NCBI GenBank assembly: GCA_963780105.1
Contig: CAWABC010000055.1
Coordinates: 3,015 to 67,014, forward strand
Direction of reading: 5' to 3'
DNA from: an uncultured Acidobacteriaceae bacterium
Lineage (GTDB): Bacteria; Acidobacteriota; Terriglobia; Terriglobales; Acidobacteriaceae
DNA length: 64,000 bases
A program made the translations under genes and the position numbers. A model generated the notes under the pieces. The model was not told the origin of the DNA, ran no database searches, and worked only from the letters and a program-made list of their open reading frames with translations. Below are positions 25,154 through 64,000 of the stretch, one piece after another; position 1 is the stretch's first letter, and every line of letters starts with the position of its first letter.

Positions 25154-26555
25154 ATGAGCAAACGCGCAACGAACAATCATCTGCGCCCGGAACTGGCGCG
25201 CGACCTGGGGTTGTCCCATGCGGGCGCCATCGTGGTGGGAACGATCATCGGGAGCGGAATTTTCCTGGTTCCGACCGAGATGATGCGGGCAGTGGGGTCG
25301 GCTCGACTGGTGTATCTCGCCTGGATGGTCGGTGGATTGCTCTCTTTTTTCGGCGCGCTTACGTATGCCGAACTGGGCGCGATGAAGCCGCAGGCGGGCG
25401 GCGAGTATGTGTATGTGCGCGACGCCTATGGGCCGCTGGCTGGATTTCTGTATTCATGGACCTGGTTTCTGATCGCCAAGCCGGCTTCGATTGCCACCGT
25501 TACGACCGGGCTGGTGCGGATCCTGGGAACTTTCCCGGTGTTTTCTTTCTTCTCGCGTGACTGCTTCTCGTATGGCTGGAGTTCGCATCCATTCTCCATC
25601 AACTACGGGCAACTGGTGGCGATCGCAGCTACCGTCCTGGTCTCGTGGCTGAACTACATTGGGGTGCGGCGGGCGGGGGAATTTCAGTTACTGTTCACCC
25701 TGCTGAAGGTTGCCATCATCCTTGGGATTGTGGCGGTGGGTTTTTCCTATCGCGGAGGGACGTGGGCAAATTTTGCAACAGAATTCACTGGGGCGAAAGG
25801 CGGCGTCGCTGGATTTTTCGCGGCGCTGGTGGCGGCGCTTTGGGCTTACGACGGCTGGAACGATCTGACCATGGTGGCGGGGGAGATACGGAATCCTCAG
25901 CGCAACATTCCGCTGTCTTTGATCTGGGGCGTGGCGACGGTCGGAGCGCTCTACATCCTGGTCAACGCGGCGGTGCAGTATGTACTGCCGGCGGCGGTGG
26001 TGGCAGGCTCGGAGCGTCCGGCATCGGACGCGGTGGCGCTGGTGCTGGGGCGCGCGGGCGCCAGCCTGGTGTCGGCGGGCATGGCGGTTTCGATGCTGGT
26101 GACTTTGAACGGCACCATCATGAGCGGAGCGCGCGTGCCGTTTGCGACGGCGCGCGATGGCTATTTTTTCAAGGCAATTGCGGAGGTTCATCCCCGCTTC
26201 CGCACGCCGTCGGTGTCGATTGTGGTGCAGTGCGGGCTGGCTGTCGTTCTGCTGCTGCTGGGAGGCAGTTTCCGGCAATTCTTTTCGCTGGCGATTTTCG
26301 CCGAGTGGATGTTCTACATGATCGCGGGCAGCACGGTATTCGTATTCCGCCGACGGGAACCGCAACGCGGAACGGCCGTATCACGTGTGGGGATATCCGG
26401 TGGTTCCGGCGTTGTTTGTGCTGGCTTCGGCGGCACTCCTTTACTACACATTCACCGACAATCTGAAGAGTTCGGCCGCCGGATGCCTGGCCATACTGGC
26501 GGGCGTTCCGGTGTTTTACTTTTTTGCGCGGCGACGGGTGATGGCTCCGAAGTAA
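25154..26555 (+). pseudogene. APC-family amino acid permease, one +1 frame disruption near 26369
   Basis: ORF 25154..26635 reads normally to ...FVFRRREPQR. The native C-terminus ERPYHVWGYPVVPALFVLASAALLYYTFTDNLKSSAAGCLAILAGVPVFYFFARRRVMAPK* continues in the next frame and stops at 26553-26555. Confidence 0.8.
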
Positions 26556-48163: not shown

Positions 48164-48913
48164 ATGGCTGTCAGTGACCAGTCTGTCGCCACCGGGGCCG
48201 AACTCGACCAGTTGTGTGTTAATACGATTCGCACGCTTGCAATGGACGCGGTGCAGAAGGCGAACTCGGGACATCCGGGAGCGCCGATGGGGTTGGCTCC
48301 GGTCGCCTATTGTCTGTGGCAGCAGTTTCTGCGCTATGACCCGGAAAATCCGATTTGGCCGAACCGCGACCGCTTCGTGCTTTCCAATGGGCACGCCTCC
48401 ATGCTGCTCTATTCCCTGCTGTATCTGGCGGGCGTGCGAGAAGTGAGTCCGGACGGCGGCGTTCTTTCGACGCCGGCCGTGTCGCTCGACGAGATCAAGA
48501 ATTTCCGGCAAATTGGCAGCAAGACGCCAGGGCATCCCGAATACCGATTGACCTCGGGTGTAGAGACCACCACCGGCCCGCTTGGTCAGGGCGTCGCCAA
48601 CAGCGTGGGTATGGCCATCGCCGGGCGCTGGCTGGCGGAGCACTTTAATCGTCCGGGATTCGAGCTGTTCAACTACAACGTCTGGGCGATTTGCGGCGAC
48701 GGCGACATGATGGAAGGAATTTCCTCGGAAGCCGCGTCGGTCGCCGGGCATCTTAAGCTTTCGAACCTGTGCTGGATTTACGACAACAACCACATCACCA
48801 TCGAGGGCAAAAAACGGCCGGTGGATCACCGCTTCCATCCTGACACGAGTCGACTTGCCCGCCTACACCGTGGAGGGCTACACGATGCGCGCGATCGTTT
48901 ATGGCTTCGGTGA
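48164..48913 (+). pseudogene. tkt: transketolase, N-terminal fragment only (homology ends near 48810)
   Basis: [43 protein letters not shown]...[14 protein letters not shown]...[12 protein letters not shown]...[12 protein letters not shown]. After that, no frame continues as transketolase, and the ORF tail to 48913 is non-homologous. Confidence 0.8.
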
Positions 48914-49074
48914 CCTGCCGATGGAGGAGAACGTCGGTTCCGCTGCCCAAAATGGCTCCCGGCGAGGGAGTCATTCAGGAAGTCGCCCTGAAGGAAAAGG
49001 CCCCCCAGCGTATCCGCGTGGATGTGCTGCGGCCCAGCGGATTTTCCGCGGCCACGGCGTGGTGGAAACCCTGA
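48885..49074 (+). pseudogene. short N-terminal stub resembling a medium-chain dehydrogenase/reductase (MDR)
   Basis: [17 protein letters not shown], then after a +1 shift VPLPKMAPGEGVIQ. This resembles the MRA.V....G.L..EEVP.P...PGEVLI start of Zn-ADH-like enzymes. Nothing recognisable follows. Confidence 0.3.
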
Positions 49075-49155
49075 GGACTGCACGCTTCGCCGGCCCGCCA
49101 ACCGTGATAGTATTTGGGTTCGGCATCAATCCTTCATTTGCGAGGTGACTTCTTC

Positions 49156-50173
49156 ATGGCTCAGTCCAGGTTCGTTGCCGTTGCCTCCGCCTTCGCTGCG
49201 GTTCTTCTCTTCAGCTCGTGTCTCGCCGCCGCAGAATCGGTGGATGTAAAGCGCACCGATCATCAAATCGCCGTCGTCATCGGAGGCAAGCCCTTCACGA
49301 CCTTTTATTTCGATCCCAAGGTTCCCAAACCCTACATATCGCCGCTGCGCAGCGCGGAAGGGATCGTGGTGACGCGTGGCTTTCCCATGCGCAAGGACAT
49401 TCCCGGCGAGAGCACGGACCACCCACATCATCGCGCGATGTACTTCGCCCACGGGGACGTCAACGGCGTGGATTTCTGGAGCGAGGCGGAGTTTGAGGAG
49501 AAGGCCCCCGTCGAGGTTGGCGGCAAGACCTATCAAGCGTCCGAGCATCTGCCCACGGGCGGACGGTGTTCACCGAAGCTCGGAGGACACGCACAGCGGC
49601 GCGGATTCCGGAAGTCTGCGCGCCGACTTCAACCTGGTCGGCCCGGACGGCAAGATCATCGCGGAGGAGACGCAAGGCTACACGTTTCGCGGCGACGCCA
49701 CGACGCGCACCATCGATTGCGAGTTCACCATCCACGCGCTCGGCACGCCGGTGAAGATGGGCGACACGAAGGAAGGAACGTTCGCCATTCGCGTGGTCAA
49801 AGCGCTGGAAGACACGTCCGGAATGAAGATGACCGACTCCGAGGGCCGCGTGGGCGAGAAACAGATCTGGGGGAAGCGCGCCAGTTGGGTCGATTACTCC
49901 GGCACCGTCCGGGGCAAAAAGCTCGGCATCACGATCTTCGATAATCCGTCAAACCCCAAGCATCCCACTTACTGGCACGCGCGTGGTTACGGGCTGTTCG
50001 CCGTCAATCCCTTCGGCGAGCACGATTTCTACAACGACCCGAAACGCGACGGCAGCATCACCATCCCGCCCGGCGGAAATCTGACTTTCCACTATCGCGT
50101 GCTCATCCACGACGGCGACGCCAGCCAGGCGAAGGTCGCCGAAGCCTATGCCGACTACGCGGCTGGGAAGTAG
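49156..50173 (+). pseudogene. PmoA-family (DUF6807-like) secreted protein, one +1 disruption near 49561
   Basis: Frame of ORF 49114..49944 to ...YQASEHLPTG, then frame of ORF 49376..50173 from DGVHRSSEDTHSGADSGSLRADFNLVGPDGKII... Also DHPHHRAMYFAHGDVNGVDFW, GDTKEGTFAIRV and WGKRASWVDYSG. Confidence 0.65.
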
Positions 50174-50247
50174 CCTCAATCCTCGCCCGCGAGCCCCAAG
50201 CACGTCGCATGTGCAGCTCTGCCGCACGTGCTGCACGGATTGGAGTC

Positions 50248-50266
50248 ATTTCGCGCAGCGCGAAAT
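50248..50266. repeat. perfect 19-bp palindrome ATTTCGCG-CAG-CGCGAAAT in the 485-bp gap upstream of the hdr cluster
   Basis: Read directly from the sequence. Confidence 0.8.
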
Positions 50267-50658
50267 CGCATCCTTCCCAGCGAATGCGCCCGGGCCAAGC
50301 CTCGCGGTCCTTGCGAACCCCCAAGCGCTCGAAATCAAGCCGCCGCAGAATTCAACAAGATTTGTCGGCAGCTGTCGCGAGTCTCAACAGTCTCGGGGCA
50401 TGCACGAGTACAGAAATACTCAGAACCCGATGCCTTGCTCGTCCACGACTGGGCATAGCTCCGGGCGTGTTGTGCTGGCGCTCGGCAAGCTTTCAAGCGC
50501 GAATGATGGCCCGCGCCGTGCTGTTTGCCCGTCATGAGGAAGTGTCCCAAAGCGGGGGGCAGGATGTCCGAGTTGCCCCGTGCTCGGGGATGGCTTCCAG
50601 CACTCTTACGAGTGATCGTCATTCCTGGGAATGCCGCAGGAAGAGGGGAGGCAAAGGG

Positions 50659-51337
50659 ATGGCGCGGCCCGCTTTTTTCCAGAAGGTCAAGTACGAAAAA
50701 GAGCTGAAGACGTGATCTTGCCGCCGAGGTCGTCGCCACGCCCGGCGGCGAGAAGATCTTTTCCTGTCTGCAGTGCGGGACGTGCGGCAGCGCCTGCCCG
50801 CTCTCCGTGTACATGGATTACACGCCGCGGAGACTGATCGGCATGGTCCGCGAGGGCTTCAAAGAGGAAGTCGTCACCAGTTTCGCCATCTGGTCTGTGC
50901 GCTCCTGCTACGAGTGCACGGTGCGCTGCCCGGCGGGCATCAAGGTCACCGACGTCATGTATGCGCTCAAGCGGATCGCCATTCGCGAGGGGATTTACCC
51001 GCGTCATTTTCCGGTGCCGGTGCTGGCCAAGGAATTCATGGAAATGCTGAAAGGTACGGGCCGCAACAACGAGTTCTGGCTCGTCCTGAAAGTGTTGCTG
51101 AAGACCGCGCCGATGAAGTTGCTGACCTCGTGGCCGCTGGGACTGCGGCTGTGGCGGCGAGGCCGCATGTGCCTGACATCCAGCCGGATTCCCAGGGCGG
51201 CGAACGAGGATTTGCTCCGCATTCTGGACTCCATGGAGTCGAGCGGCTCCGCGAAGCGCGAAGTGATCGCCCCGGTGGCACCTTCCGCCTCCGGGGAACA
51301 ACAGGCAACCTGCTGCCCACCGGCCAAGGCTGCCTGA
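50659..51337 (+). pseudogene. hdrC: HdrC-like 4Fe-4S dicluster protein, one +1 disruption near 50713
   Basis: MARPAFFQKVKYEKELKT (the last 18 codons of ORF 50209..50715) joins DLAAEVVATPGGEKIFSCLQCGTCGSACP...SCYECTVRCPAGIKVTDVMYALKR (frame of ORF 50807..51337, read from 50716). Confidence 0.7.
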
Positions 51338-51362
51338 ACGACGGCGAGGGAGGGTCCCGACT

Positions 51363-52256
51363 ATGGCTTACACGTACTTTCCCGGCTGTTGCATGCATGG
51401 CTTCGCGCGCCACTGCCAGGACTCGCTCTATGCGGTGTTCGAGGCGCTGGGTCTGGAACTTCGGGAATTGCAAGGATTGGAATTGCTGCGGAGCCACCAC
51501 CTACATCTCGGTGGATGAATATCAGGCGTTTGCGCTTGGAGCGCGCAATCTGGCCATGGCCGAAAAGGCAGGACTGGAATTCGTGGCCCCTTGCACGGCC
51601 TGCTACATGATTCTCAAGAAGACCAAGGATTATCTGGCTCGCTACGCGGATCTGCGCGAGAAGATCGACACGGCGCTGGCCACCATAGGGCTCCACTACG
51701 AGGGCAAAATCGAAATCCTGCACCCCCTCGAGATCATTCTGCGTGATGTGGGCGTGAAAGGCCTGAAGGCCAAAGTCAAGAGACCGCTCCGGGGCTGGAA
51801 CGTCGCGCCTTATTACGGCTGCCTGATCGCACGTCCCTACGCTTTGAGCGAGGGGTTCTCACTCGAAGCCTTCGATGCGTTCATCCCGGCGTTGGGCGCG
51901 AACCTGGTGGACTTCGAGCTGAAGGCCCGCTGCTGTGGCGGCTCGCTCACGGGCACCATTGAAGAGGTTGGCCATCGGCTGGTTTACATCCTGCTCAGCC
52001 AAGCCAAGCTCGCCAGGGCGCACTGCTCTGGTTACCGTCTGCCCGCTCTGCCAGCTCAATCTGGAAGCGCATCAGGGCAAGATCAAGCGCCAGTATCACG
52101 ATGACGTCACGATTCCGATTCCGTACTTCACGCAGCTGATCGGCATGGCGCTGGGGCTATCCGGAAAAAGCCCTGGGGCTCGAGAAGCTGCTCGTGCCAC
52201 TCGACTGGGAGGTAGGGGAAAAGGCTCTTGCGGCGCGCGAGCCCGCGGCGGCCTGA
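51363..52256 (+). pseudogene. hdrB: HdrB-like protein with two CCG domains; +1 disruptions near 51469, 52015, 52160
   Basis: MAYTYFPGCCMHG...ELQ | DWNCCGATTYISVDEY...APYYGCLIARP...KARCCGGSL... | ALVTVCPLCQLNLEAHQ...IPYFTQLIGMALGL | PEKALGLEKLLVPLDWEVGEKALAAREPAAA*. GAGGGAGG lies upstream of the ATG. Confidence 0.75.
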
Positions 52257-52284
52257 GGGCCGGGGCCGTGGAAAGGAGTTGACG

Positions 52285-53494
52285 ATGGGCACAGCTCCGT
52301 ATCCGGGGACGCCCGAAGCCACGGCGGTTTTCCCCGAGATCGCCAATCTCGCCGGACCTCTTTCGCACTTGCATCCAGTGTGGGGTGTGCAGCGGATCGT
52401 GTCCGATGGGCGAGGCGATGGATTTCTCACCGCGCAAAGCGGTGAAGATGTTTCTGACGGCCGGGTTGAGGAGGTCGTGGACAGCAACACCCCGTGGCTC
52501 TGTGTTTCGTGCCACACCTGCGCGGTGCGATGCCCCAGTCAACTGCTTATTTCCGATGGGCTTGTTCCCCGCTCTGCGTCCGCGGTGATGGCGGAGGGCA
52601 AGGACGCTCGAGCAGGATCTGCAGAAGGCTCTCCAGAACACTTACCTCTACGGCAATCCGATGGGGATACTCGCCGCAAGCAAGCGGACGGAGTGGACCA
52701 AGACGGCCGGAGTGCCCGTCCCCATCATCTCGCAACTGAAGCGGCCGGTGGATGTCCTTTGGATCGTGGAGTGTTACCCCTCCTTCGAGCCGCGCGGACC
52801 AGGAGATCTCCCGCAACTGCTGGCGCGCATTCTGAACGCGCTGGGCGTGGACTTCGCCATTCTTGGGCACGAGGAGCGATGCCTGGGCGACTGCGAGTGG
52901 CTGGCCGGGGAGCGCGGCCTCTTCGAGATGCTCATTGAGCGAAACATCGAGATCCTGAAGAAGTACCAGTTCAAAGAAATTCTCATGACGGACCCGCACT
53001 CTTACCGCACGCTGTTGAATATCTACCCGAAGCTGGGCGGCAAGTTCGTGGTGAAGCACTTCACGGCCTTTCTGGCCGAGCGGCTCGAGCAGCTCAAGCC
53101 TCTTCTCAAGAAACGGGTCAACGGCACGGTGACCTATCACGATTCCTGCTGCGTGGGGAGGAAGACGGGCCATTACGACGAACCGCGCGCCGTGCTCCAG
53201 GCGATCCCCGGTTTGAAACTCGTCGAGATGATTCAGAACCGGGAGTCGAGCCTGTGCTGCGGCGGCGGTGCCAGCACGATCTATCTCGACCGTTACATCC
53301 AGGAGCGCGTCAAGGATCGCCTGGCGGACCGGCGGGTGATGCAGGCAGCGGCGACGGGCGCGGAGACACTTGCGGTAGCGTGCCCCTTCGAGACCGCGCG
53401 CTTCGAAGACGCCGTCAAGCTGACCGGGAACGAGGAAAAGCTCGTCGTTCGCGACATCATCGAACTGTTGGCCGAGTCCATGGAAGTCGCCTGA
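52285..53494 (+). pseudogene. soluble HdrD/GlpC-like fusion (4Fe-4S dicluster + CCG domains); disruptions near 52352 (+1), 52465 (-1), 52601 (+1), possibly a compensated pair near 52545/52580
   Basis: MGTAPYPGTPEATAVFPEIANLA | PDLFRTCIQCGVCSGSCPMGEAMDFSPRKAVKMFLTAG | EEVVDSNTPWLCVSCHTCAVRCPSQ ... AVMAEGK | TLEQDLQKALQNTYLYGNPMG...TYHDSCCVGRK...SSLCCGGG...ACPFETARFEDA (ORF 52661..53494). GGAAAGGAG RBS. Confidence 0.7.
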
Positions 53495-53508
53495 GGGAGG
53501 ACGGGGCC

Positions 53509-54279
53509 ATGAATATCGCGGTGCTGACCAAGCAGGTTCCCGACCTTGTCGAGGGTGTGGAGATCGATTCCACCGGCAAGGCCGTCGATCCCGATTCCAT
53601 TCGCTACATCCTCAGCGAATCGGACGACCACGCCCTCGAAGAAGCCGTACTCATCAAGGAGCGGACGCAGGCCCGCGTAGAAGTGTTCTCCCTCGATACC
53701 GGTGAGGTGCGCGACACGCTGTGCACGGCGCTCGCCAAGGGGGCTGACCGCGTCGTCCTGATCCGCACGGGGCTGGAGACCCCGCCGAGCAATCACACCG
53801 TGGCGAAAATCTTCGCCTCCGTGCTCCAGGGACTTTCCTTCGACCTGATCTTGACCGGAGTCCGCGCCATCGATGACCTGGACGGCTCGCTCGGCGGGCT
53901 GCTCGCCGGATATCTCAACCTGCCTTACGTCGGCTTGGTGCGCAAGATTGAAATGGCGGACGGCACATCGATGGCGGTCGTCCAGAAGGAATACCCGGGC
54001 GGCTACGCGGCGGAACTGGAAGTGAAGCTCCCGGCAGTGCTGGGCATCCAGGCGGCAGAGCAGCCGCCGCGCTACGTCCCCGTCAGCCGTCTGCGCCAGG
54101 TGATGAAGACGGCAAACATCGAGGAGAAGGAAACCACCGCGCCCGAGCCGGAATCTGTCGCCGTCGAGCGCATGTTCAAGCCCGAGGAAGGCATGGGAGC
54201 CACGATGTTCTCCGGGACCCCCGAAGAGATCGCCAGCCAGATCGTCGGCCTGTTCTCAGAACGACGGCTCGTGAGGTGA
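53509..54279 (+). CDS. etfB: electron transfer flavoprotein beta subunit (intact)
   Basis: MNIAVLTKQVPDLVEGVEIDSTGKAVDPDSIRYILSESDDHALEEAVLIKER...DLILTGVRAIDDLDG. GGGAGGA RBS. Confidence 0.9.
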   Translation: MNIAVLTKQVPDLVEGVEIDSTGKAVDPDSIRYILSESDDHALEEAVLIKERTQARVEVFSLDTGEVRDTLCTALAKGADRVVLIRTGLETPPSNHTVAKIFASVLQGLSFDLILTGVRAIDDLDGSLGGLLAGYLNLPYVGLVRKIEMADGTSMAVVQKEYPGGYAAELEVKLPAVLGIQAAEQPPRYVPVSRLRQVMKTANIEEKETTAPEPESVAVERMFKPEEGMGATMFSGTPEEIASQIVGLFSERRLVR

Positions 54280-54282
54280 CGT

Positions 54283-55269
54283 ATGGGCAAGGACATTTGG
54301 GTTGTCGCCGAGCACTTCCAGGGACGCCTGAACGACATCACCCTGGAGCTGGTTGCGAAAGGGCGCGAGCTGGCTCAGGCCACGGAGTCGAAACTCGCTG
54401 TGGTCTTGCTGGGCAGCAAGGTGAAGGGCCTGGCGAGTGAGCTCGCCGCGGATATCGTTTACCTCGCGGATCGCCCGGAGTTCCTCGAGTTTACCCCGGA
54501 GGCTTACGGTGCGGCGCTAGAGGCCGCATTAAAGGATGTCCAACCGCGTGCGGTTCTGCTGGGCAGCACCTCGGTGGGACTTGACCTGCTCAGCATGCTT
54601 TCGGCACGGACGGGCATTCCCTGCATTGACAACTGCACACGCCTGGAAGTCCGTGGTGGCCACTTCTTCGCCACCAGCCAGATCTATGGCGGAAAGCTCT
54701 CGGCCGAAGTGGCGGTGCCGGAAGCGACAGCTCTTATCGCCGTGGTTCCCGGTTCGTTCCCCAAGCCTGAGACCGCGGCGGCCGGGCGGCCGGAGGTTCA
54801 GGACATCCCGCTGCCGGCGACACTCCCCGAACTGCGGGTCAAGTTCCGCAAACTGATCGAACCACCTCCCGGCGACGTGGACATCACTCTAGCACCCGTG
54901 CTGGTCGCCGTTGGCCGGGGCATTCAGAACGCCGACAACCTGCCCATGGCCGAGGAGCTGGCTGAAGCGTTGGGTGGCGCGGTCTGTGCCTCGCGTCCCG
55001 TCATCGATCAGGGGTGGCTGCCGCTCACCCGCCAAGTCGGCAAATCGGGCATGACCGTCAAGCCGAAGCTCTATCTTGCCTTCGGCATCAGCGGCGCTCC
55101 GGAACACTTGGAGGGCATGAAGAATTCCGAGTTGATTGTCGCCGTCAACACCGACCCGAGTGCGCCAATCTTCGCCGGCGCGCACTATGGCGCGGTCGTC
55201 GACGCGCTCGATCTCCTGCCCTTGCTGACCGAGGAGGTCCGCAAGGAGAACATGAAGAAGGCAAGCTGA
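54283..55269 (+). CDS. etfA: electron transfer flavoprotein alpha subunit (intact)
   Basis: 328 aa. ...LVAVGRGI...AEALGGAVCASRPVIDQGWLPLTRQVGKSGMTVKPKLYLAFGISGAPEHLEGMKNSELIVAVNTDPSAPIF is the FAD-binding signature. Confidence 0.9.
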   Translation: MGKDIWVVAEHFQGRLNDITLELVAKGRELAQATESKLAVVLLGSKVKGLASELAADIVYLADRPEFLEFTPEAYGAALEAALKDVQPRAVLLGSTSVGLDLLSMLSARTGIPCIDNCTRLEVRGGHFFATSQIYGGKLSAEVAVPEATALIAVVPGSFPKPETAAAGRPEVQDIPLPATLPELRVKFRKLIEPPPGDVDITLAPVLVAVGRGIQNADNLPMAEELAEALGGAVCASRPVIDQGWLPLTRQVGKSGMTVKPKLYLAFGISGAPEHLEGMKNSELIVAVNTDPSAPIFAGAHYGAVVDALDLLPLLTEEVRKENMKKAS

Positions 55270-57323
55270 TGATCCCGACCACCGCGAAACTCGGGCCGAT
55301 TCCCGCGTGGGTGCTCCTTTGGGCGGTTTTTCTCACCGCGCTCGGACTCTTTGCGTGGCGGGTGGTCTTCCTGATCCGGCTGCTTCGCCTCGGCCGGCGG
55401 GACAGGCGCTGGGACCAGATCCCCCGGAGGATCAGGAAGGTTCTCATCTACGTCCTCGGCCAGCGTCGCTTGCTCGATGAGCCGCTGGTGGGCATTCCCC
55501 ACGTTCTCATCTTCTACGGCTTTCTGGTCTTCGTGATGGCCACCAGCGGAATGCTGCTCCAAGGACTTTTCCCCGGCGTTCATATCCCCGGCGTGGAAGA
55601 GAATCGTTATCTCGCTCCAGTTGTGGATATCTTCGCCGTGGTGGTGCTGGGAGGCTTGGCTGTTTCTTCCTTCCGACGCTTCGTGATCCGCCCGGCGGGC
55701 CTGCAACTGACTTGGGACGCGACTTTCGTGAACATCCTGATCGCGTCGCTCATGGTGACGTATCTCGCCGCGGAGGGGTTCGGCCTCGTGGCGTGGCCGG
55801 GGGAACACGCGGTGTGGCTCCCCTTCGGCTCCGGCCTGGCGGCTTGGTTCGGGCGCTCGGCAACACTGCACGCGAGTGCCCCTGCGCTCTACCAAGGTTT
55901 CTGGTGGGCGCATTTGAGCATCGTGCTGTTCTTCCTGGCTTACCTCCCTTACTCGAAGCATATGCACCTGATGGCTGCGCCCTTCAGCGTGTTTTTCAGC
56001 CGGCTCGACCCTCCGGGACGCCTGCCTACTCCCCTGCCGGAAGCCAGCAGTCTGGGCGCCGAGCGCCTCGAGGAGTTCACTTGGCGACAACTGCTCTCTG
56101 CTTTCGCCTGCGCGGAGTGCGGGCGTTGCGAACGCGCCTGCCCGAGCTTCCAGGTCGGCGAACCCTGCTCACCGCGTGAACTCGTCCACAACCTCAAGCT
56201 GCAGTTGCTCCAGCACGGCCCCGCGCTACTTAAGAAGATGGAATCCGCGAGCAACGTCGGGGAACCCACGTTGATTGGCGGCCTGATCGCACCCGAGGAA
56301 CTCTGGGGTTGCACGACCTGCCTTTCCTGCGTCGAGCACTGCCCCGTCCTGAACGAGCACCTCTCGATCATGGTGGACCTGCGCCGACGGCTGGTGGAGC
56401 GCGGGGAAGTGGACGCGCGTCTTCAGGAAGCGTTCAGCAACCTCCAGCGCTACGGCAATTCCTTCGGCCAGTCGGAGCGGAAGCGCGCGGTGTGGACGCA
56501 AGGGCTGGACTTCAAGCCGACGGACGCGCGTAAGCAGCCGGTCGAGTGGCTTTGGTTCCTGGGAGAGTACGCCTGCTACCACCCGGCACTTCAGGAAACT
56601 ACTCGCACGCTCGCCCGCGTGCTGCACGCGGCCGACGTGGATTACGGAATCCTCTACGAGGCGGAGCGCAACACCGGCAACGACGCGCGCCGCGCCGGCG
56701 AAGAGGGCTTGTTCGAGCTGCTGCGCGAGAAAAACATGGCGACGCTCCAGAAAGTCCAGCTTCAACAACTTGTTCTCCACCGATCCGCACGTCTTTAACA
56801 CGCTGAAGAATGAATATCCGGATCTCAATCACGGACGGCATCAGGTCCATCATTACACGGAGTTGCTGGCCGGGCTCTCTGGAGCGCGGGCGGCTCAAAG
56901 TCGCGCACAAGCTGCCCTACCGGGTGACCTATCACGACCCGTGCTACCTGGGCCGCTACAACGGCGTCTACGACGCCCCGCGCCAAGTGCTCAGGGCGTT
57001 GGGAGTGGACTTGAAGGAAATGCCGCGCTCGCGCCGCGACAGCTTCTGCTGCGGCGGAGGCGGCGGGCGCGTGTGGATGGAAGAAATCGGCGAGGCGCAC
57101 TCGCGCCCCGGCGAAAGCCGGGTGCGTGAGGCGGCCAGCGCTGCAGGGAGTCCAGATCCTGGTGGTGGCCTGTCCGAAGGATTACGTGATGTTCGCGGAC
57201 GCGCTCAAGACCACCGGCCTGGAAGGCCATTTGGTCGTCAAGGATTTGACCGAGTTGGTGGCGGAAGCCGTGGGGCTGACCGATCAGGCCGCAAAATCCG
57301 CCTCCGAGGCGAAGGCCGCATGA
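55269..57323 (+). pseudogene. membrane-anchored FeS oxidoreductase (N-terminal multi-TM domain fused to an HdrD-like dicluster + CCG domains; Etf-associated DUF224 type); +1 disruptions near 56760, 56878, 57140
   Basis: The ATG overlaps the etfA stop (TGATG). There are 5-6 TM helices ending in LPYSKHMHLMAAP. Then CAECGRCERACP and CTTCLSCVEHCP. The sequence continues | [39 protein letters not shown] | [35 protein letters not shown]...[16 protein letters not shown]...RVREAAS | [23 protein letters not shown]...*. Confidence 0.75.
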
Positions 57324-57327
57324 GCTT

Positions 57328-57463
57328 GTCACCCTGAGCGCCGCGAAGTCTCTGCAGTTGCTTGGGGGAGGACTAGAAGCAGGTTCTTCGCGGAGTTTAC
57401 CCTGAGCGGGAACCACAGATTCTTCGCTCCGCTCAGAATGACAAGCGAAGGGCTCAGAATGAC
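57328..57463. repeat. degenerate, nested copies of REP family 1 inside the cluster
   Basis: GTCACCCTGAGCGCCGCGAAG..., ...TTACCCTGAGCGGG...GCTCCGCTCAGAATGAC and AAGGGCTCAGAATGAC. These are related to the GTCATCCTGAGCGAAGCGAAGGACC arms of copies A and B. Confidence 0.6.
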
Positions 57464-57517
57464 AGTGAAGAAAGGGAAGAGCAGAGCGGGCTAACTGCAC
57501 GGAGAGAGGACACAGCC

Positions 57518-59515
57518 ATGAACGGCAACGGGAACCACAACGCGAGGATCGGAGTTTACGTTTGCCATTGCGGAACGAACATCGCCGGCAAGGTGGACGT
57601 GAAGGCCGTGGCGGAGGCGGCCGCCAAGCTTCCCGGCGTGGTCGTTTCGCGCGAGTACAAGTACATGTGCTCGGACCCGGGACAGGATCTCATCGTCAAG
57701 GACGTCAAGGAACACCAGCTGAATCGCGTGGTGGTAGCCTCCTGCTCGCCGCACCTGCACGAGCTGACGTTCCGCAAGACGACGGCGAATGCCGGGCATA
57801 AACCCTTACCTCTTCCACATGGTGAACATTCGCGAGCACGTCTCCTGGGTGAGCGACGACACGGTGGCGGCCACGAAGAAATCCAAGGCCCTGGTCAAGG
57901 CCGCGGTGACCCGCGCGTTCTGGCTTCAGGAACTGGAGCCTCGGCGCTTCCCGGTGAATCCCAACGTGCTCATCGTGGGCGGCGGGATCGCGGGCATCCA
58001 TGCCGCGCTGACCCTGGCCAACGCCGAGCAAGCAGGTTTACCTCGTCGAGCGCCAGCCGTCGATCGGCGGCCATATGGCGCAGTTCGACAAGACGTTTCC
58101 CACGCTCGACTGCGCGGCCTGCATCCTCACGCCCAAGATGACCGCCGTGAAGCAGCATCCCAACATCCATCTCATGACGCTCTCCGAGGTCAGCGAGGTG
58201 AGCGGCTTTGTGGGGAACTTCAAAGTCAAGGTGAAAAGATACCCGCGCTACATCGACGAGGCCAAATGCGTGGGCTGCGGCGAGTGCATCGAGATGTGCG
58301 TCTACAAGGAGGGAAAGTATCCGAACGAATTTGATCTGGGGCTGGGCAAACGCAAGCCCATTTACATGCCTTTCCCGCAGGCGGTGCCCCCCGTGCCGCT
58401 GATCGACCCCGCCACCTGCATCGAGTTCAAGTCGCACAAGTGCCCGAAGGGGTGCGTGGAGGTCTGCGGCGATCGCGATGCCATCGACTTCTCGCAGAAG
58501 GTGCAGGAGGTCGAATTGGAAGTCGGCACCATCATCATGGCGACCGGCTTCAAGACCTTCGATCCGCACCGCTTGCCGCAATACGGCTACGGGAAGTTTT
58601 CCAACGTTTACACGAGCCTGGAGGTCGAGCGCTTGGTCAATGCCTGCGGGCCCGACGCTCGGTCAGGTCGTGATGCGCGACGGCAAGAAGCCGCGAGTCC
58701 ATCGGCGTCCTGCACTGCATCGGCTCACGCGACGAGAACACCAACAAATACTGCTCGCGCGTCTGCTGCATGTATTCGCTGAAGCTCGCGCACCTGCTCA
58801 AGGAAAAGACCGGCGCGCACCTCTACAACTTCTATATCGACATGCGCACGCCCGGGAAAGGCTTCGAGGAATTCTACAAGCGCGTGCTCGAGGAAGGTGT
58901 TTCGATGATCCGCGGCAAGGTGGCGGAAGTGAGCGGCTGGGCGCAGTCGCCCGCGGAGGAAGGCAAGCTCGTCCTGCGCGTGGAAGACACGCTGCTCGGC
59001 GTCGTGCGGCGCATTCCGGTGGACATGGTGGTGCTCTCGGTCGCGCATGGAACCGCAGGCGGACGTCGCAGGAAGTGCGGCGCCTGTTCAACCTCGGCTG
59101 CTCGACCGAGGGGTGGTTCCTGGAGCGCCATCCCAAGCTCGCGCCCGTGGATACGTTCACGGACGGCATCTTCCTGGCCGGATGCAACCAGGGGCCCAAG
59201 GACATTCCCGACACGGTGGCCCAGGCGGGCGCCGCCGCGGCGCAGTGCATGGCGCTCATCGACAAGGGCTTCGTCGAAATGGAGCCCAACACCGCCTGGA
59301 TCGATGAGGAACTCTGCTCCGGCTGCCACGTCTGCGTCGCGATGTGCCCGTACACCGCCATTCATTTCGATAGCGAGAAGAAAGTCGCCGTTCTGAACGA
59401 AGCGCTCTGCAAAGGTTGCGGAACGTGCGTCGCCGCCTGCCCCTCGGGCGCCGCGCAGCAGAATCTCTTCCGGGATGAGCAGCTCTTCGCCGAAGTGGAA
59501 GGAGTGCTGGTATGA
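57518..59515 (+). pseudogene. hdrA: heterodisulfide reductase subunit A-like flavoprotein; six +1 disruptions near 57796, 58027, 58654, 58694, 59046, 59072
   Basis: [17 protein letters not shown]...[18 protein letters not shown]...NAG | [17 protein letters not shown]...[20 protein letters not shown] | [37 protein letters not shown]...CVGCGECIEMC...ERLVNACGP | TLGQVVMRDGKKP | ESIGVLHCIGSRDENTNKYCSRVCCMYSLK...VVLSVA | MEPQADVA | EVRRLFNLG...GIFLAGCNQGPKDIPDTVAQ...CSGCHVCVAMCPY...CKGCGTCVAACPSG. Confidence 0.85.
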
Positions 59516-59950
59516 ACACGAAATTCAACCCCTCCATCGTCGGTTTCTTCTGCAACTGGTGCACCTACCTCGCCGCCGATCTCGCGGGCACCTCGCGCAT
59601 GAAGTACGCGCCCAACGTGCGCGTCGTGCGCACCATGTGCTCGGGACGCGTGGACCCGCAGATGGTCCTGTGGGCCTTTCGCAACGGCGCCGACGGCGTG
59701 CTGATCGGCGGCTGCCATCCCGGCGATTGCCATTATCAGGAAGGAAACTACAAGGCGCTGCGGCGCACGCGCCTGCTCCGCAAGATGCTGCCGCAGTTCG
59801 GCATCGAGCCGGAGCGCCTGCGGCTGGAATGGATTTCCGCCTCCGAGGGCGAGCGCCTGCGCGACGTTGTCAATGAATTCACGGAGCAGATTCGCCGCCT
59901 CGGGCCGCTGCCGTGCGGAGCCGGCGAAGGAAGAGGCGATTGCCGCGTAA
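59512..59950 (+). pseudogene. mvhD: MvhD/FlpD-type hydrogenase delta subunit; probable +1 disruption near 59913
   Basis: ATGA overlap with the hdrA stop. IVGFFCNWCTYLAADLAG...RTMCSGRVDPQMVLWAFRNGADGVLIGGCHPGDCHY. The proposed end ...LGPLP | AEPAKEEAIAA* (stop 59948-59950) is less certain. As sequenced, the frame reads through into mvhG. Confidence 0.7.
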
Positions 59951-60042
59951 CGATTTCAGCCTGTAGCGGGGGTCTCCGACCGCCGCCACGGCCCGGCGCT
60001 CAGAGAGCGCCGCTACAGAGCAAGGGAAGGAGCCAAGGAACC

Positions 60043-61019
60043 ATGGCCAAACCCAAAGTGGCGTTTTACTGGTGCGCAAGCTGCGGCGGCTGCGAAGAGG
60101 CCGTCGTCGATCTCGCCGAAGGACATCCTGAAGGTCGTGGAGGCCGTGGACATCGTCTTCTGGCCGGTGGCGCTCGACTTCAAGCGCTCCGATGTCGAGG
60201 CGATGGCCGGACGGCGAAATCGCCGTCGCTTTCATCAACGGCGCGGTTCGCATCGAGCGAGCAGGAAGCGATGGCCAAGCTGCTGCGCCGGAAGTCGGGA
60301 CTGGTCATTGCCTACGGCGCCTGCGCCTACCTAGGGGGGCATTCCCGGCCTCGCCAACCTGACGGACAAGGAGGCGATCCTGGAATTACGTCTACCACCT
60401 CTCGCCCTCGACAACCAACGGCACCGGCGTGCGCCCGCAGACGCACTTCCAGGTTCCCGAGGGCGAACTGGAGTTGCCGGAGTTCTACGAGACCGTCAAG
60501 ACGCTCGATCAGGTCATCGACGTCGACTACTACCTTCCCGGCTGCCCGCCTACGCCGAAGATCACGCTTGCAGGCGATCGAGGCCATTCTGAGCGGGAAG
60601 CTGCCTGAAAAGGGCTCGGTGCTCGCGGGCGACCGCGCGCTCTGCTACGAGTGCGACTTGAACTCCACCAAGCCCGAGAAGCTGCTGGTCACGGAATTGA
60701 AGCGGCCGCACCAGGTGCTTGATCGACCGCGAGAAATGCCTGCTGGCGCAGGGGATTCTCTGCCTGGGCCCCGTCACGCGCGGCGGCTGCGAGGCGCTGT
60801 GCGTCAAGGGCGGCATGCCCTGCACCGGCTGCTTCGGGCCGCTCGAACGCGTGCGCGACTACGGCGGCAAGGCGCTTTCGGCCATCGCCTCCATCGTGGA
60901 TTCCACCGACGAGACAGGTCATCGCCAAGGTTTTCGAAGCCGTCCCCGATCCGGCGGGGACGTTCTATCGGTACAGCGTGCCGGCATCGTTGCTGGCCGG
61001 AAAGCGCAAAGCTGCATAG
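60043..61019 (+). pseudogene. mvhG: [NiFe] hydrogenase small subunit (MvhG-like); eight +1 disruptions near 60120, 60209, 60258, 60338, 60383, 60570, 60717, 60914
   Basis: AAGGGAAGGAG RBS. MAKPKVAFYWCASCGGCEEAVVDLAE | DILKVVEAVDIVFWPVALDFKRSDVEAMA | DGEIAVAFINGAVRIE | EQEAMAKLLRRKSGLVIAYGACAYLGG | IPGLANLTDKEAIL | NYVYHLSP...DYYLPGCPPTPKITL | QAIEAILSGKLPEKG...KRPHQV | LIDREKCLLAQGILCLGPVTRGGCEALCVKGGMPCTGCFGP...STDE | QVIAKVFEAVPDPAGTFYRYSVPASLLAGKRKAA*. Confidence 0.8.
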
Positions 61020-61028
61020 AGGTGCGTC

Positions 61029-62501
61029 ATGGCTCAGAGAATCACGATTGATCCCATCACCCGGCTGGAAGGCCACGGCAAGATCGAGATCTTTCTCGAC
61101 GACAGCTGGCAAGGTGAGCCGCGCCTACTTCCAGGTGCCGGAGTTGCGCGGCTTCGAGCAGTTCGTCGTCGGACGGCCCGCCGAGGAGATGCCGCAGATC
61201 ACCTCGCGCATCTGCGGCGTTTGTCCCACGGCGCATCACATGGCGAGCCACCAAGGCGCTGGACGATCTTTACCAGGTCGATCCGCCGCCCGTCGCCAAG
61301 AAGCTGCGGGAGATGATCTACAGCATCTTCATGCTCGAAGACCACGCGCTGCACTTCTACTTCCTGGGCGGGCCGGATTTCGTCGTCGGGCCCAAGGCCC
61401 CCAAGGCCGAGCGCAACATCCTGGGCGTGCTCGGCAAGGTCGGCGTGGAAGTGGGCAAGCGGGTCATCGGCATGCGCAAAGAATTGCGCGACCTGATCAG
61501 CCTGCCTGGGCGGCAAGGTGATTCACCCGGTGTTCGGCTTGCCGGGTGGCGTTGCCAAGCCCCTGGCACCGGCCGATCAGCCGAAGTTCATCGAGGCGGC
61601 CAAGCGCGGCGTGGATTTTGCCCTGTTCACGCTGACCGTTTTTGACCAGAGTCGTCCTGAAAAACAAGGAATACGTGGACGCGATCACCTCGGAGATGTA
61701 CACGCACCGCACCTATTACATGGGCTTGGTGGACGAGCAAGAACCGCGTCAACTTCTACGACGGCCGTATTCGCGTCGTCGACCCGCAGGGCAAGGAGTT
61801 TGGCGTCTTCACGGCGCGCGAGTATCTGGACTCGATCGCCGAGCACGTCGAGCCGTGGAGCTACATCAAGTTTCCGTATTTGAAGAAGATCGGCTGGAAG
61901 GGTTTCGTGGATGGGCGCGGATTCGGGCATCTTCAGCGTGGCGCCGCTGGCGCGACTGAACGCCGCGGACGGCATGGCCACCCGCGCGCCCACGAGGCCT
62001 ACGAGCAGCTCTTCGCCACGCTGGGCGGCAAGCCCGTGCACCACACGCTGGCCTTCCACTGGGCGCGGGTCGTGGAAATGATCTATGCGGCGGAGCGATT
62101 CCTCGAGCTCGCGAGCGATCCGGAGATCGTCGACCCGAACGTTCGCGACGCTGCCCACCGCGCGTTCCCAAGGTCGGCATGGGCGTGGTGGAAGCGCCGC
62201 GCGGCACGCTCTTCCATCACTACGAGACCGACGAGGCGGGCGTGATCACCGCGCGCCAACCTCATCGTCGCCACGCAGAACAACGCCGCGCGCATCGCCC
62301 TTTCCGTGGACAAGGCGGCGACGGGCGCTGATCAATGCCACGACGGCCAACGACGACGGCCTGCTCAACATGGTGGAGATGGCCTTCCGCGCCTACGACC
62401 CTTGCCACGGCTGCGGCACGCACTCGCTGCCCGGGTCGATGCCGCTCAAGATTTCGATTCGCGACGCAGAGGGCCGTCTGATTCGGGAGATCTCGAGGTA
62501 G
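61029..62501 (+). pseudogene. mvhA: [NiFe] hydrogenase large subunit (MvhA-like); about ten disruptions near 61107, 61249, 61504, 61650, 61741, 61919 (+1 each), 61982 (-1), 62140-62165 (net -1 or two +1), 62254, 62321 (+1 each)
   Basis: MAQRITIDPITRLEGHGKIEIFLDDS | GKVSRAYFQVPELRGFEQFVVGRPAEEMPQITSRICGVCPTAHHMAS | TKALDDLYQV...FMLEDHALHFYFLGGPDF... | LGGKVIHPVFGLPGGVAK... | VVLKNKEY... | NRVNFYDGRIRVVDPQGKEF... | DSGIFSVAPLARLNAADGMAT | PRAHEAYEQLF... VGMGVVEAPRGTLFHHYETDEAGVIT | ANLIVATQNNAARIA... | ALINAT...MVEMAFRAYDPCHGCGTHSLPG...*. Confidence 0.85.
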
Positions 62502-62565
62502 GGAGTAACGATTCCTTTTCTCCTTGAGGCCTGCCGGGGTAGGCCGCGACCGCGACGCAAAAGAC

Positions 62566-63051
62566 ATGCCTGAATCGACGCAGTCCATTCTCGTACTGGG
62601 ACTCGGCAACGACCTGCTGAAAGACGATGCCGTGGGGATTCGCGTCGCGGAGAGACTTCAGGGGACTTTCGGGGAAGACGTCGAGGTCCGTTCGACCTCG
62701 CTCTTTGGATTGTCGCTGCTGGATGAGTTGCTAGGCCGTGAGAAGGCGCTGTTAATCGACAGCTACCTTCCGGAGGAGTTTGTCGGGTCGGAGATTCAGG
62801 AGCGCAACCTTGATTCGGTCGGCGAAGCCTGCGGCGTCTCTCCCCACTTCGTCGGCTTGGGCGAAGTGCGCAACGTCATGCGAAAGCTTGGCCTCGGCTT
62901 TCCCCACGAGGTGCGCATCCTGGCCATCCCCGTCTCCGACCCGACGACTTTCTCCACCGAGATGACCCCTGCCGTCGCCGCCCTCGTCGACGAAGCCGCC
63001 GCCCGCGCCCGCCGGATCGTCGAGGCGTGGCTCCCCGTCAGCGCTCGCTAG
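62566..63051 (+). CDS. hydrogenase maturation endopeptidase (HycI/FrhD/HoxW type), intact
   Basis: The ATG at 62566 gives MPESTQSILVLGLGNDLLKDDAVGIRVAERL (GxGNxxxxDDxxG). A later motif is SPHFVGLGEV (His). Confidence 0.8.
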   Translation: MPESTQSILVLGLGNDLLKDDAVGIRVAERLQGTFGEDVEVRSTSLFGLSLLDELLGREKALLIDSYLPEEFVGSEIQERNLDSVGEACGVSPHFVGLGEVRNVMRKLGLGFPHEVRILAIPVSDPTTFSTEMTPAVAALVDEAAARARRIVEAWLPVSAR

Positions 63052-63107
63052 TGTAGTGCGTCATAAAGATATTGACTTATTCTCGGCCTTCGGGTATCCT
63101 GCTGTCC

Positions 63108-64000
63108 ATGAGCCGAAGAGCCGAACCAATTCTTCTTTCTGAACAGGAGCGTAGCACCTTGCGAGCGTGGGCCAGAGCCAGAAGCCAGCCGCAGCGCCTC
63201 GTTCAGCGGGCCCAGATCATCCTGCTGGCCGCCGAGGGAGTCGAGAACCAGGAGATCGCCCGCCGCGTGCATGCCTCGCGACCGACGGTGCAACTCTGGC
63301 GTGGGCGGTTTCTGGCCCTGCGCACCGCCGGTTTGGAGAAGGACGCTCCTCGTCCCGGCCGCATCCCGGCCATCAGCGACCGGAAGAGGGCGGCGATTGT
63401 GGAAGCGACGCTGCACCGCCAACCGTCCAACGCTACCCACTGGAGTAGCCGGTTGATGGCCAAAGCGCAAGGCGTCAGCGAAGCGACCGTGCGGCGAATC
63501 TGGAGGCAGCACAGCTTGAGGCCGCACCGCCTGTCGACGTTCAAGGTAAGTCGCGATCCCCGGTTCGTGGAAAAGCTCACCGAGGTCGTGGGCCTTTATC
63601 TCAACCCGCCCGATAAGGCGCTGGTGCTGTGCGTGGATGAAAAGAGCCAGATTCAAGCTCTCGACCGCACCCAACCGGGTCTGCCGCTGCGACCCGGCCG
63701 CTGCGGCACGATGACGCACGACTACACGCGCCACGGCACCACCACCTTGTTCGCAGCTCTCTCGACCCTCGATGGCGCCGTCATCGGGGACTGCATGCCG
63801 CAGCACCGGCATCAGGAATTCACCCGCTTCCTCAAGCGCATCGATCAGCAGACACCCAGCGGACTGGACTTGCACCTCATCGTGGATAACTACGCGACCC
63901 ACAAGCATCCTGGTGTCGAGCGTTGGTTGCGCCGCCACCCGCGCTTTCACCTGCACTTTACTCCCACGTCCTGTTCCTGGCTCAATTTGGTCGAACGCTG
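63108..64000 (+). mobile_element. IS630-family transposase gene (3' end runs off the window)
   Basis: Own translation from the ATG at 63108: MSRRAEPILLSEQERSTLRAWARARSQPQRLVQRAQIILLAAEGVENQEIARRV...THWSSRLMAKAQGVSEATVRRIWRQHSLRPHR...LVLCVDEKSQIQALDRTQP...HLIVDNYATHKHPGVERWLRRHPRFHLHFTPTSCSWLNLVER. It shows the HTH plus DDE pattern of IS630/Tc1-like transposases. It is absent from the ORF track because there is no stop in the window. Confidence 0.85.

Follow-up and report, generated by a model that had tools for sequence, protein, structure and literature searches.

In programmed frameshifting and slippage, known from prfB, dnaX, and the transposases of IS3 and IS1, each gene carries one site with a conserved slippery motif that is common to its orthologs. 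Frame changes also enter sequences as errors, and long-read assemblies are known to contain insertions and deletions (indels) that fragment genes and that persist if polishing support is poor (PMC12007338, PMC8812927, PMC8574707). The residual errors of polished long-read assemblies are mostly linked to homopolymers, and in GC-rich genomes they are mostly deletions of G or C (PMC8574707). Real bacterial pseudogenes have a spectrum of their own, as a curated set holds 300 insertions and 396 deletions (a ratio of 0.76), with sizes that follow a power law and often exceed 1 nt (PMC6054270). Here we describe a 64,000-nt stretch of DNA (the window) from contig CAWABC010000055.1 of an uncultured Acidobacteriaceae bacterium (assembly GCA_963780105.1), in which a block at 48813-63056 carrying a hydrogenase, heterodisulfide reductase (Hdr), and electron transfer flavoprotein (Etf) gene cluster is crossed by 38 net frame changes. 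We conclude with high confidence that these disruptions are not biological; they reflect errors, mostly insertions of one base and a few deletions, that remained where the consensus was poorly supported, close to the end of the contig. The hydrogenase and Hdr cluster genes are very probably intact in the organism itself.

The frame changes were followed by three independent checks, which agree. The block was aligned with MAFFT to five syntenic Terriglobia/Acidobacteriota loci (L002, L003, L004, L023, and L025), which had been found with the membrane iron-sulfur (Fe-S) protein of the cluster as query, L002 sharing 87% amino acid identity across that protein. The intact proteins of L004 served as guides for a frameshift-aware protein-to-DNA dynamic program, and a reference-free Viterbi tracker followed the reading frame by codon usage over 1-64 kb. 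In the protein-to-DNA alignment, the coding sequence between 48930 and 62321 contains 38 net frame changes, 36 of which are +1 and two -1 (52457 and 61980), with -2 an equally possible reading of the change at 59911 in mvhD. A preliminary description, made from the sequence alone, had listed about 38 disruptions at 37 places, nearly all +1 and at least two -1, and all 37 places are matched within a few bases. By the tracker, 48-64 kb contains 36 frame switches on the same strand and 1-48 kb nine. Seven of these nine were checked individually: six are gene borders, as judged by ends of open reading frames (ORFs) or by Pfam (e.g., 33337, where VitK2_biosynth adjoins BioY), and one is a frameshift. 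The sole event of this kind in the first 48.8 kb, earlier placed near 26369, is a true, isolated +1 at 26364-26366 on the + strand in a gene for an APA-family amino acid/polyamine antiporter. It is evident from five homologs that are 92-94% identical across the first 404 residues, and the deposited product is frame-extended to 493 aa versus 458-470 aa in the homologs.

Not among the places previously listed are two pairs in which a +1 and a -1 compensate each other, 8 nt apart at 50894/50902 and 21 nt apart at 52558/52579. The first pair turns the conserved WLCAS into WSVRS, at the cost of one conserved Fe-S cysteine of a cluster motif, and both pairs look like typical local consensus mis-calls. 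Two other alignment events, at 49124 and 60039, were discarded as frame changes, as they are non-coding and lie upstream of start codons. No frame change at all was found in etfB, etfA, the protease and transposase genes, or the first 1.5 kb of the membrane protein gene, in keeping with the preliminary description.

The indels occur in this assembly alone and are missing from the orthologous loci, including, where it spans them, that of a 99.3% identical relative. In the MAFFT alignment, the window carries 35 private insertions and five private deletions of 1 nt; the same count for each of the five relatives yields 0-1 insertions and 0-2 deletions, and no insertion site of the window is common to any of them. 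The alignment to orthologous loci that had been proposed as a check thus shows the extra bases to be unique to this assembly. The other private indels of the window are mostly multiples of three or intergenic, as natural change would give. The near-identical relative, L001, is a 3815-bp Logan short-read contig from run ERR12035932, which was retrieved by an exact look-up of the etfA protein. Against window positions 53272-57088 it is 99.3% identical, with 23 substitutions and exactly two gaps, both of which are extra bases of the window, an A at 56758 (GTCC[A]GCTTC) and a C at 56879 (GCTCT[C]TGGAG). Patch 2, the second of the two patches in which the frame changes lie, opens with these two disruptions; neither extends a homopolymer, and the membrane protein ORF of L001 is uninterrupted up to the end of its contig.

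Removal of the indels yields intact, conserved genes without other signs of decay. With the stray bases taken out, all genes read through with zero in-frame stops, and their catalytic and ligand motifs are intact. The events themselves are 36 insertions versus two deletions, all of 1 nt (binomial P = 5e-9), and show no evident preference for context: 20 of 32 inserted bases stand in runs of length 1 (background 55%) and two of 32 in runs of three or more, which is no more than background. The preliminary description had placed some of the extra bases in runs of G or C and others outside them; such runs are not preferred, and the concentration in homopolymer runs that marks residual homopolymer-type long-read error is not found here. 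Inspection by eye of the sequence around the insertions revealed no motif, such as one of methylation type. As to programmed frameshifting or slippage, the sites have neither a motif nor a run in common, and none is shared with the relatives.

The frame changes are also concentrated near the contig end and in patches there. The block belongs to the last ~18 kb of a 67,204-bp contig (as recorded in NCBI and ENA) whose end lies at most 3.2 kb past the window, and the event rate within the block is ~139 times that of the first 48.8 kb. Clean stretches occur at 52.6-56.75 kb, 59.1-59.9 kb, and 62.3-64 kb. The patchiness noted in the preliminary description withstands statistical treatment, as the clean gap of 4155 bp has a P of ~3e-4 under a uniform rate and, given the 8.3 events per kb seen locally, the clean stretch at 62322-64000 has a P of ~9e-7. 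The boundaries between clean and dirty sequence are sharp and do not fall at gene borders; the membrane protein gene is clean for 1.5 kb and then has three events. The insertions are private, other decay is absent, the indel spectrum is the opposite of that of real pseudogenes, and the location is near a contig end, all of which favors an artifact over pseudogenization. The preliminary description had likewise favored an unpolished, insertion-prone consensus, and this preference is borne out.

The left border of the block is itself abrupt. At 48809-48813 on the + strand, a transketolase N-terminal domain is joined to the tail of a GH2 gene. The transketolase breaks off midway through this domain, after residue ~216 (...HITIEG), and its Pfam Transketolase_N match ends at profile position 191 of 334. 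Homologs of this protein continue ...HITIEGNTALAF, their tblastn match stops at 48808-48811, and tblastn with these homologs found a continuation nowhere in the window. The cut gene runs directly into the final 86 codons of a GH2 gene, of which L002, L003, and L004 have full-length copies, and blastn homology to the same three loci starts sharply at 48813-48814 and ends at ~63051-63057. No insertion sequence (IS) end is found at the 48812/48813 junction, microhomology there amounts to at most 2-3 bases, and the block runs for 117 bp before its first stray base (48930). On the right, synteny with the relatives stops at ~63056, and there an IS630-family element follows the protease gene directly. 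The 48812/48813 junction may be a mis-join, for example of a chimeric read, or a real rearrangement. GC content at third codon positions (GC3) is 0.83 in the block versus 0.73 in the left part (P = 1.4e-5), which is weak evidence for a join of two genomes, as a similar gene-specific rise is seen in the relatives. The tetranucleotide correlation (0.895 versus 0.909) gives no separation between the block and the 48.8 kb to its left, and the left part is also Terriglobia-like by its transketolase matches. As a separate observation, the transketolase matches in ENA and NCBI include many N-terminal fragments, 210-260 aa in length, from long contigs (47-138 kb), and these fragments suggest that frame-broken genes are common in the long-read metagenome assemblies of the collection.

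If the disruptions are consensus errors, the dirty patches would have a consensus built from a single noisy single-molecule read or from very few of them, and the clean stretches would have had enough additional read support for correction; in the IS region, the correcting reads may include those derived from other copies of the element. The profile of the noise, which is insertion-dominated, substitution-poor, and context-independent, would most resemble raw error of the PacBio continuous-long-read (CLR) type. A mis-join at 48812/48813, where the sequence changes abruptly, may be one more feature of this weakly supported contig end.

The verdict of an artifact is a strong inference drawn on comparative and statistical grounds and not proof, and several points weigh against it. 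Low read support at the patches is itself inferred and not seen. The error profile is unlike the usual residual errors of polished long-read assemblies, and the platform and mechanism named above are a guess; a literature search for run ERR12035932 found no paper. Composition does not demonstrate a chimeric join, given the tetranucleotide result and a GC3 difference that is partly gene-specific. Finally, only two of the 38 sites can be compared with a sequence of more than 99% identity, the closest relatives otherwise being 85-93% identical. This is because further searches provided no other near-identical sequence: an exact-protein look-up of the protease, with two candidate starts, found none on record; homology searches reached best identities of 93% (corrected MvhA), 86% (a 145-aa MvhG segment), and 92% (the transketolase N terminus); and the 90% cluster that contains the fused HdrCB protein has members of only 83-87% identity.

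A narrower form of the artifact, compatible with the general one, is that a mosaic consensus or polishing over co-occurring or related strains produced spurious indels where the strains diverge. The comparison with L001 lends this some substance. Divergence is 0.2% over 53.3-56.3 kb (six substitutions in ~3 kb, all synonymous, as are all differences in the etfB/etfA region) and rises to 2.5% over 56322-56994 (17 substitutions in 670 bp), and the switch at 56322 precedes the first patch 2 insertion by 430 bp. This jump suggests a recombination tract or a strain switch in the consensus just ahead of patch 2. Identity to the closest metagenome-assembled genome (MAG), L002, likewise swings between 77% and 95% along the block. 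However, a single boundary was examined in this way, the swings in identity to L002 do not match the patch borders, and no clear coincidence of patch borders with identity changes to the MAG relatives was seen. Mixtures of strains, moreover, usually give substitutions or collapsed variants and not a 36:2 excess of 1-nt insertions. We consider this sub-mechanism unlikely.

Far less probable is a real, recent burst of 1-nt insertions that inactivated the Hdr and Mvh genes, the DUF6807 gene, and part of the membrane protein gene while sparing etfBA. The frameshifts are truly present in the deposited sequence, the rearrangement-like breakpoint and the adjoining IS630 element are both possible companions of genome flux, and the relative L003 likewise has a frameshift in hdrB. 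The genes themselves, however, bear no trace of such a history. Selection was gauged from window-private substitutions at columns invariant among the relatives, which at codon positions 1, 2, and 3 amount to 3.2, 2.5, and 13.1% in the first patch (patch 1), 1.6, 1.0, and 9.5% in patch 2, and 2.8, 1.4, and 12.7% in the clean stretch. Purifying selection is still visible in the patches as in the clean part, position 3 far exceeding position 1 and position 1 exceeding position 2, and second-position change in patch 2 is not raised over that of the clean region. The earlier statement that the peptides are conserved and free of in-frame stops is upheld by this unchanged pattern and by the stop-free corrected genes. 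Relative to L001 there are 16 synonymous and seven non-synonymous differences, and some of those located past the first insertion count as synonymous only once the frame is corrected. In bacterial mutation-accumulation data the ratio of substitutions to indels is usually 5-10:1, at which 38 real neutral indels should have brought with them several nonsense codons and, across all codon positions, ~190-380 additional substitutions, or 2-4% of sites. The block shows neither this substitution load nor the nonsense codons, and it also lacks the raised change at positions 1 and 2 expected of an evolutionary pseudogene.

The kind of indel and its placement speak against a real burst as well. Insertions outnumber deletions 36:2 and all are of 1 nt, versus a ratio of ~0.76 and longer indels in real pseudogenes (PMC6054270), so that neither the deletion bias nor the range of sizes typical of pseudogenes is found. 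The events occur without homopolymer or repeat context, both testable extra bases are missing from the 99.3% identical strain, and the sharp boundaries between clean and dirty sequence ignore gene borders. The fallback offered in the preliminary description, that the hydrogenase/Hdr half of the cluster is freshly inactivated with etfBA kept, is not supported. Should the insertions nevertheless be real and have arisen in a very short time, hydrogen-linked electron bifurcation would be silenced with etfBA left intact, and a hitherto unknown insertion-biased mutational process would be indicated; the evidence is strongly against this. One such process, a localized and context-independent +1 tract of error-prone repair or synthesis that is tied to the 48813 rearrangement and the IS630 element and peppered ~10 kb, strikes us as scarcely credible. 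A biological decoding of the frame changes that would leave the genes functional as written, whether through RNA editing, slippage in transcription, or programmed +1 frameshifting, has its sole support in the full conservation of the peptides between shifts and is effectively refuted by 38 sites in 10 genes that lack a shared motif, slippery run, or homopolymer and of which none is conserved in the five relatives or the 99.3% identical contig; we know of no bacterial nucleotide-deletion editing system.

Beneath the stray bases, which we take to be consensus errors, lies a recognizable cluster. Its layout was derived from the intact ORFs of L004 and L002 together with Pfam, and all of its features lie on the + strand. 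The block opens with the 3' tail of the GH2 glycosidase gene (48813-49074; +1 at ~48930), followed by a DUF6807 gene (49156-50173) with a messy spot at 49551-49582, where events of -1, +1, and +1 sum to a net +1, which the protein-to-DNA alignment places at 49555/49575/49582. The gene for an HdrC-like 4Fe-4S protein (50659-51337) has a +1 at 50710 in addition to the compensated pair 50894/50902, and the HdrB-like gene with CCG domains (51363-52256) has +1 changes at 51471, 52021, and 52160. In L003 (JAIQGH010000030.1), hdrB is split over two overlapping frames, with ORFs at 5986-6552 and 6417-6980 and the break at ~6417-6552; L003 also has two private 1-nt deletions in the alignment, and in L002 and L004 hdrB is a single ORF of 303 aa. 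The following gene of the block, a fused Fer4 and CCG (HdrC/B-like) gene (52285-53494), has a +1 at 52348, the -1 at 52457, a +1 at 52603, and the compensated pair 52558/52579, and is clean from 52661.

After the clean genes etfB (53509-54279) and etfA (54283-55269) comes the gene for a membrane Fe-S/CCG oxidoreductase (55269-57323), which is clean to 56757 and then has three +1 changes. The first two are the A at 56758 and the C at 56879 fixed by L001 (56751-56758 and 56878 in the protein-to-DNA alignment), and the third lies at ~57137. Homologs of this membrane protein, ~35% identical, occur in MAGs of Nitrososphaerota and Chloroflexota. Between the membrane protein gene and hdrA, at 57327-57463, lies a repeat of ~140 nt (GTCACCCTGAGCG ... 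CGCTCAGAATGACA), which may be a miniature mobile element. One copy is found in the window and two in L003 (14619-14756 and 12051-12152), one inverted between mvhD and mvhG. The hdrA gene (57518-59515) carries six +1 changes (57794, 58026, 58645, 58694, 59046, and 59071), and mvhD (FlpD; 59512-59950) a single change at ~59911, near its 3' end. The hydrogenase subunit genes are the most heavily affected: mvhG, for the small subunit (60043-61019), has eight +1 changes (60124, 60209, 60252, 60334, 60386, 60573, 60718, and 60914), and mvhA, for the [NiFe] large subunit (61029-62501), has ten (61107, 61246, 61505, 61644, 61735, 61913, 62147, 62160, 62251, and 62321) together with the -1 at 61980. 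The clean gene for a hydrogenase maturation protease (62566-63051) was identified by its position and by homology to ORFs of L003 and L004, as a Pfam search of its product returned no match. The IS630-family element (63057-64000), also clean, encodes a transposase with helix-turn-helix (HTH) and DDE_3 domains from 63108 and continues past the end of the window.

Pfam matches in the block comprise NiFeSe_Hases, FlpD, Oxidored_q6, CCG, Fer4, and Pyr_redox_2. Corrected MvhA is 487 aa long, as are its best database relatives (92-93% identical), and carries RICGVCPTAHH and DPCHGCGTH, which represent the N-terminal RxCGxC and C-terminal DPCxxC motifs of the large subunit. The underlying genes therefore appear to encode a group 3c [NiFe]-hydrogenase (Mvh) and its Hdr partners, the subgroup being taken from the source names of the relatives ('F420-non-reducing hydrogenase large/small subunit') and not from a phylogeny. 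The order hdrC, hdrB, fused hdrCB, etfBA, membrane Fe-S/CCG protein, hdrA, mvhDGA, and protease is kept across several Terriglobia MAGs, being seen in L002, L003, and L004 and, as far as the loci reach, in L023 and L025.

The errors have consequences for the use of the record. As deposited, the contig makes ten intact genes of a hydrogenase/heterodisulfide reductase/Etf cluster look like pseudogenes, which calls for a data-quality flag. A pseudogene count for the MAG, or a claim that this Terriglobia population has lost hydrogen metabolism, would be misleading. At least one nonsense protein has entered public protein collections: the 669-aa ORF at 59512-61521, present in the NCBI and ENA collections, runs through a chimeric frame in which true-frame pieces of mvhD and mvhG are joined by off-frame stretches. 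It is a singleton cluster among ~15 billion proteins, and the protein is artifactual. The 48812/48813 junction carries a further warning, in that the last ~18 kb may not belong beside the first 48.8 kb.

A comparison of this locus with known sources of frame change shows both similarities and disparities. Like the indel errors of long-read (PacBio or Nanopore) assemblies, the events are assembly-private, 1 nt in length, and split conserved ORFs into apparent pseudogenes and chimeric-frame ORFs. Unlike the usual residual errors of such assemblies, which are homopolymer-linked or G/C deletions (PMC8574707), 36 of the 38 are insertions, their contexts are arbitrary, and they lie in patches within the last ~18 kb. 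The errors of the block look like raw, unvoted single-molecule noise and not systematic residual error. Evolutionary pseudogenes share with this locus the presence of several frameshifts per gene across neighboring genes but differ in their deletion bias, power-law sizes, nonsense codons, and raised non-synonymous change (PMC6054270; see also PMC2817411). As in programmed frameshifting, a conserved protein is read across the frame change; unlike in programmed frameshifting, there are up to 11 sites per gene, without a motif and without conservation in relatives. The underlying cluster, in turn, resembles MvhADG-HdrABC clusters in its NiFeSe_Hases, Oxidored_q6, and FlpD proteins, its HdrA-like FAD/Fe-S protein, and its CCG-domain proteins, whereas the Terriglobia version differs from them in placing etfBA and a membrane Fe-S/CCG protein between hdrCB and the hdrA-mvh genes.

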